Shown piece by piece: positions 24,755 through 26,285 of a DNA stretch of 64,000 nt. The stretch is from Escherichia coli. GTDB taxonomy: Bacteria; Pseudomonadota; Gammaproteobacteria; Enterobacterales; Enterobacteriaceae. A model generated the notes under the pieces. It saw only the letters and a program-made list of their open reading frames with translations. It searched no databases and was not told where the DNA came from. The translations under genes were made by a program, and so were the position numbers. The stretch lies in the NCBI RefSeq assembly GCF_003334765.1, contig NZ_QOWT01000014.1; one strand, written 5' to 3'. The first letter of the stretch is position 1, and every line of letters begins with the position of its first letter.

Positions 24755-24973
24755 TTACCATTCCTCGCGCAGCTTACGCTGATATTCGACACCATCTTCC
24801 TCACACCCTTGCCAGATGCCAGGAACACTGGTTCTTGCTGTTTGCGATTGATTTATCAGGTATTGATCTACCGCTTCCCTTAATAGGTCCGCACGAGGAA
24901 GATTACGCTGCACCTCGAGATCATCAAGTTGCTTAATCACCTCATTCGATAAATCGAGTAAAATTCTGCCCAT
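24755..24973 (-). CDS. yiiF: Small ribbon-helix-helix (CopG/Arc/MetJ-like) protein
   Basis: Track ORF 24755..24997; start at internal Met [19 protein letters not shown]...; 72 aa; symbol assigned from remembered K-12 gene order (nearest fdhE). Confidence 0.75.
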
Positions 24974-25214
24974 ATCTATACCTGCCAGAGAGTTCATAAA
25001 TATCTCGCCAATATCATTTTTGAATCTATGGAGAGAAAAGTACCCTTGCCGAATCTTTAAAGAAAGCTCATTTACGCATCATTTTTTATTTTTGCGAGGC
25101 GTTTTCCAGATATGATGTAACAGTTGCAGTTATTATAAGTTCAAGTAAAACAGCCTTGTATTAATACCAGAATAAGGGCATCTGTTTTTTATATTCAAGA
25201 ATGAAAAATTTTTG

Positions 25215-25433
25215 TCATTCCTTATGCTCCTTACACTGATCATCAACACCAACTACCTCCCCCTTTTGCCTGCCTCCCTTTGCTTTACGCACCGGGAATT
25301 GCTGACGTTCCAGATATTGCTCTACCGCTTCGCGTAAAATTGCAGATCGTGAAACCTTACGCCAGCCCCGAAGCTTGTTCAGCCGTTTAATTGCCTCTTC
25401 TGATAAATGAAGAAAAACCGTATTCATCGCCAT
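25215..25433 (-). CDS. yiiE: Small ribbon-helix-helix protein, paralog of yiiF
   Basis: Track ORF 25215..25460; start at MAMNTVFLHLSEEAIKRLNKL...; 72 aa; shares the L.LS.E.IK.L...REAV.QYL pattern with YiiF. Confidence 0.75.
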   Translation of the reverse strand: MAMNTVFLHLSEEAIKRLNKLRGWRKVSRSAILREAVEQYLERQQFPVRKAKGGRQKGEVVGVDDQCKEHKE

Positions 25434-26285
25434 TACCAATACCTTACATATATTACTCATTAATGTATGTGCGAAAATTACGCCGGAAAATCATTTAAAA
25501 AAAGCGGATTTTTGCATGTTGTTTTGTTTTTGCGAGGCGTTTTCCAGAAATAATAAGAGTGTTGCAGTTGTTTCATTTATTACTCAAAAATGGTTTAGTT
25601 ATCGCCCAGGATGAATTATGGGTGCTATGAATATATTATATTCAGAGATATTTATTTGCATAATCTGAATGGTGTAGCCGAAAAACGTCAGCATCCTAAC
25701 AGCACCAGGATTTAAGGTGAAATTAATCTTTCATCACAGACCGGTCAGTACTGCCACCAACCGGTCTTTACTTGCTCATCGTTATAATTTTGTTGGTAAC
25801 AGTTCGGGAAAGTTGTTTTTCTAAATTAACAACAGAATAACTTTCTTGTTTAATGAGATTAATATTGGCAACCATTATAGCCTCCTTCCCACGGTTTAAG
25901 AGCAAACATACAACATAATTATTCATAACATACAGAGCAGTAAATGAATGATACTGACAATGATGCTAGTCCATTATCTTTGCATAATATTTGTTAGCTA
26001 TAGATTTTAAAAATATTTATGAGAAAAGTATGGCACCAGAGGGGGTTTTGACTATCAAAAATCGCTCAAACATGAACTAAGATGATGAATTAAGCATTAT
26101 CTGCGATAATTGCCACTCAGTTCTACAAATAATATTTAAATGCTCCTGAACAGTGATGTAGCAAGACACGTATGGAGCCAACGAAGAATAAAAATTTATA
26201 GAGTTCTTATTTAATATAACCGAAATAGCCAAGGACTAATATAAATGACCTGAATGAGAGAGGCAGCACCGCCCCTCTCCATCAG

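Follow-up and report, generated by a model that had tools for sequence, protein, structure and literature searches.

In a stretch of 64,000 nucleotides of Escherichia coli DNA (RefSeq assembly GCF_003334765.1, contig NZ_QOWT01000014.1; below called the window) two small ribbon-helix-helix (RHH) genes, yiiF and yiiE, lie one behind the other on the minus strand, and an exact 22-bp element is found upstream of each of them. We interpret the two copies as CRP-S sites which would serve two orphan antitoxin genes of the vapB type, an interpretation to which we assign a probability of roughly 70%. CRP-S sites are non-canonical CRP sites, at which CRP-cAMP depends on the competence co-activator Sxy (TfoX) to activate transcription.

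The repeated element and its match to the CRP-S motif

The E. coli CRP-S motif is given as T4G5C6G7A8-N6-T15T16C17C18A19 in the passage of PMC6728893 that quotes Sinha et al. 2009, and both copies of the element match it exactly. The half-site TGCGA, which has a C at position 6 compared to TGTGA, is located at 25093-25097 and 25531-25535, and the second half TTCCA follows after a 6-bp spacer at 25104-25108 and 25542-25546. The window contains no other match to TGCGA-N6-TTCCA, the expected number being 0.25, and 0/100 shuffles gave two or more. In its passages on these sites PMC6728893 describes the motif as asymmetric and independent of orientation, and both of its unlike halves as required for Sxy dependence.

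The upstream region of sxy in K-12 was used as positive control. It contains TTCGGAAAGAGCCTCGCAAATT, 146 nt from the ATG, which bears the half-sites described for the sxy promoter (Psxy) and is identical in 16/22 positions to the yiiE/yiiF site and in 18/22 to a copy upstream of a higB-nadS module. The Psxy site (Jaskolska & Gerdes 2015; Sondberg et al. 2019, PMC6728893) and the yiiE/yiiF sites are both asymmetric and 22 bp long; TGCGA forms the promoter-proximal half, and TTCC followed by A or G the distal one. Their spacers are similarly G/C-rich (AGAGCC in Psxy, AACGCC at yiiE/yiiF), and the distance to the start codon is about 115-146 nt. In the distal half the predicted yiiE/yiiF sites have TTCCA and Psxy has TTCCG, and Psxy precedes the competence regulator whereas the yiiE/yiiF sites precede antitoxin relics.

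Upstream of K-12 chpS, a gene reported to be Sxy-induced, TGCGA-N6-TCGCA is found together with a second site that has the 14-mer TGGAAAGCGGCTCG in common with the vapB site. The two CRP-S-like sites of this region (locus L086, ~10440-10500) are TGCGAGACGACTCGCA, 174 nt upstream, and TCCGAGCCGCTTTCCA, 122 nt upstream, and the spacer of the latter (AGCGGC, other strand) is the same as the vapB-site spacer. This hints at a G/C-rich spacer as a shared feature of the chpS and vapB sites, and the G/C-rich spacer common to these sites and Psxy may carry a determinant of Sxy dependence. Two other K-12 promoters were considered as controls. Upstream of hicA, whose P1 promoter would have been the second positive control, there is only a looser CRP-S-like site, and it was hence not used; the region upstream of higB (TGGAA-N6-TTCCA) has two 'distal' halves and is uninformative.

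The 22-mer TTTTTGCGAGGCGTTTTCCAGA is present in exactly two copies in the window (Table 1), even if up to three mismatches are allowed, and 0/100 shuffles gave any match. Next after each copy follows GTTGCAGTT, at 25123-25131 and 25561-25569. The copies are 438 bp apart from start to start and lie inside a 100-nt direct repeat of 73% identity, and the gene-plus-upstream units can be aligned over ~445 nt. The original prediction had described tandem RHH paralogues with a near-identical element roughly 95-160 nt before each gene, and had proposed a duplication of the whole unit of ~440 bp. All of this is borne out, the distances being 116-162 nt for yiiF and 94-142 nt for yiiE (counted to the 72-aa starts). 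Of 5426 complete E. coli genomes 5414 carry the 22-mer, nearly always on the chromosome and at a median of 2 places per genome, so in E. coli it is bound to its locus and not a dispersed repeat.

In gene orientation the element contains TGG-N10-GCA and could be read as a sigma-54 (-24/-12) promoter, all the more as the GG-N10-GC spacing is kept in all variants including a diverged yiiE allele (see below). A position weight matrix built on 50 sites from chromatin immunoprecipitation sequencing (ChIP-seq), however, scores the core at 3-4 bits, whereas no true site scores below 4.7 and their median is 14.7, and ~270-490 positions of the window score no lower than the main core variants. With 47 occurrences in the window the bare pattern is as frequent as expected by chance, and the main text of the ChIP-seq study lists the nearby fdoI site with yiiE, yiiF and yiiD unmentioned. 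A sigma-54 promoter is thus hardly credible. The fdoI site is the published intragenic site IS47 (E. coli ChIP-seq), which is present in the window as CTGGCGCGAATTCTGCA at 23017-23033 (+).

Three further candidates were rejected. A sigma-70 promoter formed by the element itself would need an acceptable -35/-10 pair, which is missing, and a scan for it came out empty. An Rfam search of 24000-26800 for known RNA families gave only naRNA4/ES036 matches at 24571-24710, which derive from repetitive extragenic palindromic (REP) elements. A small conserved open reading frame (ORF) would run through the element on the plus strand (…FCEAFSR…); in this frame a start codon is missing from the yiiF copy.

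The element in other genomes and the promoter layout

The pattern TYTGGAAARCGSCTCGCAAA was searched for in 100,044 species genomes and turned up at 67 loci, of which ~55 are enterobacterial (a few being metagenome-assembled genomes or mislabelled contigs that group with the enterics). Seventeen loci are vapB-PIN operons, in which the RHH reading frame starts 113-114 nt from the site. Another eight belong to a relB/relE cassette, which in E. coli adjoins cybC and occurs in ~8% of the genomes, and further loci precede higB-nadS and Gp49-type HigB/helix-turn-helix (HTH) modules. Upstream of sxy, at 139 nt from the ATG, the site is present in four Pantoea species, and these four loci are orthologous to the K-12 Psxy site; one locus lies 95 nt upstream of radC. 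It was these sxy, radC and toxin–antitoxin contexts that pointed to the Sxy regulon. Among 17 aligned upstream sequences, which represent at least six named genera, no block is better conserved than the site, its flanks have diverged, and the invariant positions are T.TGGA...CG.CTCGCAAA. Such footprints across orthologous promoters are what the CRP-S sites of Enterobacteriaceae were defined by.

The relB/relE cassette sits between nrdG and cybC in 453-454 of the 5426 E. coli genomes, and its 22-mer points away from relB. E. coli E69 (L059, 4718-4739) is an example of an occupied and K-12 (L079) of an empty position. The 20-mer is also found in the yfhM–sseA region of Kosakonia (L018, L042, L051, L067, L070) and in further enterobacterial intergenic regions (L053, L076, L077; L012, L014, L035). 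The surroundings of these additional sites include a PTS permease, a 151-aa protein and the infA–clpA spacer, and none of the sites obviously precedes a toxin–antitoxin or competence gene. Three loci labelled Robinsoniella, Bacillus coahuilensis and Chryseobacterium (L037, L044, L056) hold yiiF loci of the E. coli or Enterobacteriaceae type (92-100% and 67% identity), most likely due to contamination of the public assemblies.

The 17 aligned upstream regions comprise three conserved blocks, namely the CRP-S site, the sequence G.GTAt.TT and a start-proximal block. G.GTAt.TT is placed at a fixed distance of ~46 bp downstream of the CRP-S site and has the invariant positions T114, A115, T118 and T119. 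Before both genes it contains a -10-like hexamer of a predicted distal promoter P1, and the hexamer of yiiE is conserved in E. albertii as GTAATTTT. If this block is a -10, the centre of the site would be at about -70, as in a class I-type promoter, and the 5' untranslated region would measure ~33-35 nt. A simple sigma-70 scan picked up no promoter in the P1 region. The third block, ATGATATACTGGAGGTATATATG, combines an extended -10 (TGnTATACT) with the inverted repeat ATATAC-N5-GTATAT and a GGAGG ribosome-binding site. The candidate proximal repeat of yiiE has a counterpart in E. albertii, which reads ACATAT-N14-ATATGT.

The original prediction had regarded the shared element itself as a possible autoregulatory operator, to which YiiE, YiiF or both would bind. 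Autoregulation is common among RHH antitoxins, each gene has its own copy of the element from the duplication, and 17 vapB-type genes of other genera hold it at a fixed distance. On the other hand it matches the CRP-S motif exactly, it is asymmetric and without the direct or inverted sub-repeats used by RHH dimers, and it lies ~70 bp upstream of the conserved -10-like block and not over the promoter. It is identical before RHH proteins that differ in the residues of the DNA-contacting beta-strand (TVFLHLS in YiiE, RILLDLS in YiiF). It also recurs before sxy, radC and modules with HTH antitoxins (nadS, higA) and is therefore not tied to yiiE and yiiF, a finding which the original prediction itself had named as speaking against its operator. 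The proximal inverted repeats vary with the type of RHH protein while the distal site stays constant, which makes them the better operator candidates. Taken together, binding of YiiE or YiiF to the 22-mer is very improbable, and an autoregulatory operator and/or a second promoter P2 more likely resides in the start-proximal block.

According to the CRP-S interpretation, accumulating Sxy would lead to CRP-Sxy occupying the site ~70 bp upstream of a weak P1, where it would recruit RNA polymerase in class I fashion, and each antitoxin gene would then be transcribed with the short 5' untranslated region given above. The proximal block may act as a second control point, by analogy with P2 of hicAB. 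For hicAB (Turnbull & Gerdes 2017) the passages in PMC6957337 and PMC11951105 describe a distal CRP-S promoter P1 and an antitoxin-repressed proximal promoter P2, and the layout of yiiF and yiiE resembles this. In contrast to hicAB, which is toxin-first and intact, only antitoxin genes are left at yiiE/yiiF and their P2/operator is a predicted one. The sequence upstream of hicA, TTTTGCAAATTAGCGCAAAGAA, fits the CRP-S motif less well than the yiiE/yiiF sites do.

The vapBC ancestry of yiiF and yiiE and the fabY–fdhE islet

The window shows the K-12-type arrangement of E. coli in reverse orientation, with fdoH, fdoI and fdhE on the plus strand followed by yiiF, yiiE, fabY (yiiD), dtd and yihY on the minus strand. 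Homologues of YiiF with 70-79% identity are found in Citrobacter, Salmonella, Enterobacter and others; with those RHH proteins of other genera whose gene has a PIN gene right behind it at this locus, YiiF shares 74-79% identity. In 54-56 of 72 positions it is identical to VapB of Citrobacter and Salmonella, and the C-terminal tail is conserved with those proteins. In C. freundii, S. enterica subsp. diarizonae and a third enterobacterial contig the yiiF orthologue occupies the slot between fabY / alpha-beta hydrolase and fdhE, and immediately 3' of it follows a PIN gene of 122-124 aa, whose best NCBIfam matches are VapC. In Enterobacter, too, the orthologue at the fabY–fdhE position is followed by an intact PIN/VapC gene. 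E. albertii contains a single RHH gene before an intact 124-aa PIN gene, and its protein has an N-terminal domain identical to YiiE and a tail of the YiiF type. Intact PIN genes are present at loci L006-L010 and L085.

No intact PIN gene adjoins yiiF in the window, only a pseudogene, and there is nothing of the kind downstream of yiiE. Two pieces of vapC were recognized by blastx against the PIN proteins of Citrobacter, Salmonella and locus L010 (Table 1); the N-terminal piece is clear in the E. coli alleles L002 and L004 (E=4e-8 to 4e-7). These two alleles are without the REP insertion that lies inside the pseudogene in the window. The original prediction had stated that neither gene has a toxin-sized neighbour, which stands for intact genes and does not for gene remains, since the vapC pseudogene adjoins yiiF. 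The syntenic vapB–vapC orthologues and the vapC remnant identify yiiF as an orphan vapB that has lost its vapC partner to decay in E. coli. The decay in E. coli next to intact genes in the relatives explains the missing toxin, and because vapC is left only as a pseudogene, yiiF and yiiE are classed as orphan antitoxin genes and not as a toxin–antitoxin system.

YiiE matches Pfam RHH_1 (PF01402) with E=1.6e-11. For YiiF the match is weak (0.007), and PF01402 hits are present in its orthologues. The two proteins are identical in 29/72 positions. The tail of YiiE is without the conserved W/Y/L/W residues while its RHH domain is kept, and the YiiE-type homologues that bear organism names come from Escherichia or Shigella only, many of the matches being without such a name. 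By these alignments yiiE is an Escherichia-specific paralogue with an altered DNA-binding strand and a degraded toxin-binding tail. In this reading an ancestral vapBC operon was situated between fabY and fdhE and its PIN toxin gene decayed in E. coli; yiiF together with ~220 bp of upstream DNA was duplicated, and one copy diverged to yiiE. Compared to the syntenic vapBC loci of Citrobacter, S. diarizonae, Enterobacter and E. albertii, which share the slot and have the site at 113-114 nt, the window differs by the vapC pseudogene, the duplicated antitoxin gene and the degenerate proximal block. A hairpin with a T-run, read by eye and missed by a simple terminator scan, likely separates the transcription units of yiiF and yiiE.

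The full 22/22 identity of the two sites is limited to K-12-type strains. Other E. coli contain a second allele upstream of yiiE, TTTGGATGC[C/A]GTCTCGCAAAAA, which has five differences, yet it has the box ATAACTGCAACTGTTACAT in common with yiiF. This box includes the second motif of the original prediction (gttgcagtt) as well as a tandem AACTG, and is kept before yiiF, in the second yiiE allele and, as ATAACTGTAACTGTTGCAT, in E. albertii, whereas it is absent in other genera. It also holds TGCAAC/GTTGCA, the hexamer bound by the unrelated RHH domain of PutA.

The slot between fabY and fdhE is unstable, and other strains hold a higB-like–nadS module, small ORFs, a hydrolase gene or DUF6708 genes there. 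In the window a K-12-type deletion scar extends over 25576-26285; it is AT-rich and carries a pseudogene at ~25810-25926 according to the NCBI Prokaryotic Genome Annotation Pipeline (PGAP). At the position of the scar other E. coli and E. albertii possess a divergent alpha/beta-hydrolase gene, a higB-like (103 aa)–nadS module which has its own CRP-S-type site, and ORFs of 73 and 92 aa. A published RpoS peak in the yiiD–yiiE spacer, obtained by SELEX (systematic evolution of ligands by exponential enrichment), maps to ~26175.

Several rearrangements were observed. At locus L084 (2880-2901) the hydrolase-side flank is joined to the yiiE-side flank within the 22-mer, at L003 (2614-2635) yiiF is missing and the endpoint lies at the 3' end of the site, and at L083 (3001-3219) a hybrid gene with the N-terminus of yiiE and the C-terminus of yiiF was formed within the coding regions. 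Mosaicism of the repeated units explains why the sites are identical in K-12 and the yiiE allele is diverged elsewhere.

The endpoints in or at the site (L084, L003), the different cassettes that adjoin it and the high variability of the fabY–fdhE slot could also indicate that the element is a recombination or attachment junction of small mobile toxin–antitoxin cassettes, repeated by serial insertion. However, the element is missing from the empty nrdG–cybC position of K-12, and where this position is occupied the element lies within the inserted DNA, with ~115 nt of cassette beyond it. There is no integrase, inverted-repeat partner or attC-like structure, the same sequence is found in the stable promoters of sxy and radC, and homologous or microhomology recombination between 22-mers explains the endpoints. 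A cassette junction is hence highly improbable, and the repeated 22-mers look like recombination substrates and not like att sites.

Table 1. Positions of genes, gene remains and predicted regulatory sequences around yiiF and yiiE in the window (TSS, transcription start site)
Feature	Position	Strand	Basis and remarks
vapC pseudogene	24462..24755	−	ATG overlaps the yiiF stop (TAATG at 24755); ~73 codons deleted
vapC C-terminal piece 'EVVTRNTRD..GVVTPYEL*'	24462-24515	−	blastx, E=5e-5
vapC N-terminal piece 'IEAKPALAA'	24522-24553	−	blastx, weak in K-12, E=0.36
REP elements inside the vapC pseudogene	24571-24710		weak Rfam matches naRNA4/CssrE, ES036
yiiF	24755..24973 (72 aa); 24755..24997 (80 aa, PGAP)	−	ORF list and RefSeq annotation; orphan VapB-type RHH antitoxin gene by synteny
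Proximal block ATGATATTGGCGAGATATTTATG of yiiF, degenerate ATGATATACTGGAGGTATATATG	24995..25017	−	alignment columns 138-161; candidate VapB operator and promoter P2
Predicted -10 TACTTT, distal promoter P1 of yiiF	25037..25042	−	from the alignment; predicted TSS ~25030
CRP-S-type site before yiiF, TTTT TGCGA GGCGTT TTCCA GA (plus strand)	25089..25110; 16-bp core 25093-25108		motif match, predicted
Box ATAACTGCAACTGTTACAT, imperfect inverted repeat TAACTG-N3-CTGTTA	25115..25133	−	just upstream of the yiiF site; Escherichia-specific
Hairpin and T-run, likely terminator 3' of yiiE	25147..25189	−	read from the sequence
yiiE	25215..25433	−	ORF list and RefSeq; Escherichia-restricted RHH paralogue, C-terminal (toxin-binding) tail degraded
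Proximal inverted repeat ACATAC-N14-ATATGT before yiiE	25446..25470	−	candidate operator of a YiiE-type RHH domain
Predicted -10 TAATTT, P1 of yiiE	25475..25480	−	same alignment column as the yiiF hexamer; predicted TSS ~25468
CRP-S-type site before yiiE	25527..25548		same 22-mer in K-12-type strains; motif match, predicted
AACTGCAAC, remnant of the box ATAACTGCAACTGTTACAT	25561..25569	−	upstream of the yiiE site, K-12 allele

The proposed Sxy dependence and the possible place of yiiE and yiiF in the Sxy regulon

A number of observations weigh against CRP-S sites at yiiE and yiiF. According to the reporter work in the passages of PMC6728893 on half-sites, small half-site changes abolish or bypass Sxy dependence; these details are decisive, and a motif match is therefore no guarantee of it. 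In the second yiiE allele the distal half of the site is degraded (TGGAT), and the existence of this diverged allele means that the perfect identity in K-12 is partly due to recombination or conversion and not to selection. The -35 of P1 is weak, its -10 matches in only 3/6 positions, and the -70 geometry comes from conservation alone. At the relBE copy the centre of the site is ~47.5 bp from the TSS implied by TATAAT, which is unlike the phasing of class I or II promoters. The pattern TYTGGAAARCGSCTCGCAAA was taken from copies linked to toxin–antitoxin genes, so the census of contexts is biased. Finally, the yiiE-yiiF locus is bound by H-NS and mildly responsive to SlyA overexpression, and other regulators hence act there.

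Accordingly the element could be functional and still independent of Sxy, as a weak ordinary CRP site or a site of another factor, or its conservation could be nothing else than gene conversion within E. coli. The weight of half-site details speaks for the former, and the mosaic alleles, which reveal ongoing conversion, for the latter. Against Sxy independence stand the C6 of TGCGA and the TTCCA half, which are the published signature of Sxy-dependent sites, and the co-occurrence of the site at sxy, radC and loci reported to be Sxy-induced. The site is kept in at least six named genera despite diverged flanks, for which conversion within one genome is insufficient. We therefore consider these explanations improbable, and CRP-S sites remain our preferred interpretation.

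Control of toxin–antitoxin loci by Sxy is already known. P1 of hicAB, chpSB, higBA and toxTA of H. influenzae are under Sxy/CRP-S control. The toxTA operon (HI0660/HI0659) is likewise a toxin–antitoxin operon of the Sxy regulon on a CRP-S promoter, but belongs to another toxin–antitoxin family and has a palindromic CRP-S site of the Pasteurellaceae type, and its antitoxin is needed for functional competence in H. influenzae, as far as the passages of PMC6957337 on this operon describe it.

In our interpretation yiiE and yiiF would be new, or possibly already tabulated, members of this regulon. In our literature search no paper was found that pairs yiiF with Sxy, and one match for yiiE with Sxy came up, which was not examined for a connection. 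The 2009 list of Sinha et al. reportedly holds 34 CRP-S units. If yiiE and yiiF are among them, the regulatory part of this study is a rediscovery, while the vapBC ancestry and the survey across genera remain new. In many genera of enterics the same 20-mer precedes toxin–antitoxin genes of several families that are unrelated to each other, which suggests that the link between competence and toxin–antitoxin genes is systematic and not anecdotal.

Chromosomal orphan antitoxins can act as anti-addiction modules, an example being the chromosomal ccd of Erwinia. Like these, yiiE and yiiF have persisted although no working cognate toxin accompanies them; their presumed link to competence comes in addition. 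A further-reaching proposal, which we consider rather unlikely as a whole, is that the CRP-S variant TGGAAAGCGSCTCGCAAA is a portable module that wires at least four unrelated families of type II toxin–antitoxin cassettes (vapBC, relBE, higB-nadS, Gp49-HigB/HTH) and their orphan antitoxin relics into the Sxy/TfoX regulon all over the Enterobacterales, with YiiE and YiiF kept as competence-coupled anti-addiction proteins and the 22-mers serving as recombination hot spots which reshuffle the fabY–fdhE islet.

For the biology of E. coli these results mean that yiiE and yiiF, which are still listed as regulators of unknown function, gain an identity as relics of vapBC, one of them with remains of its toxin gene. 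CRP-Sxy is a testable regulatory input for both genes, and the model predicts that their expression is induced by sxy. If the proposal of a portable module is true, YiiE and YiiF would be switched on during DNA uptake and may neutralise incoming toxins of the VapC type.

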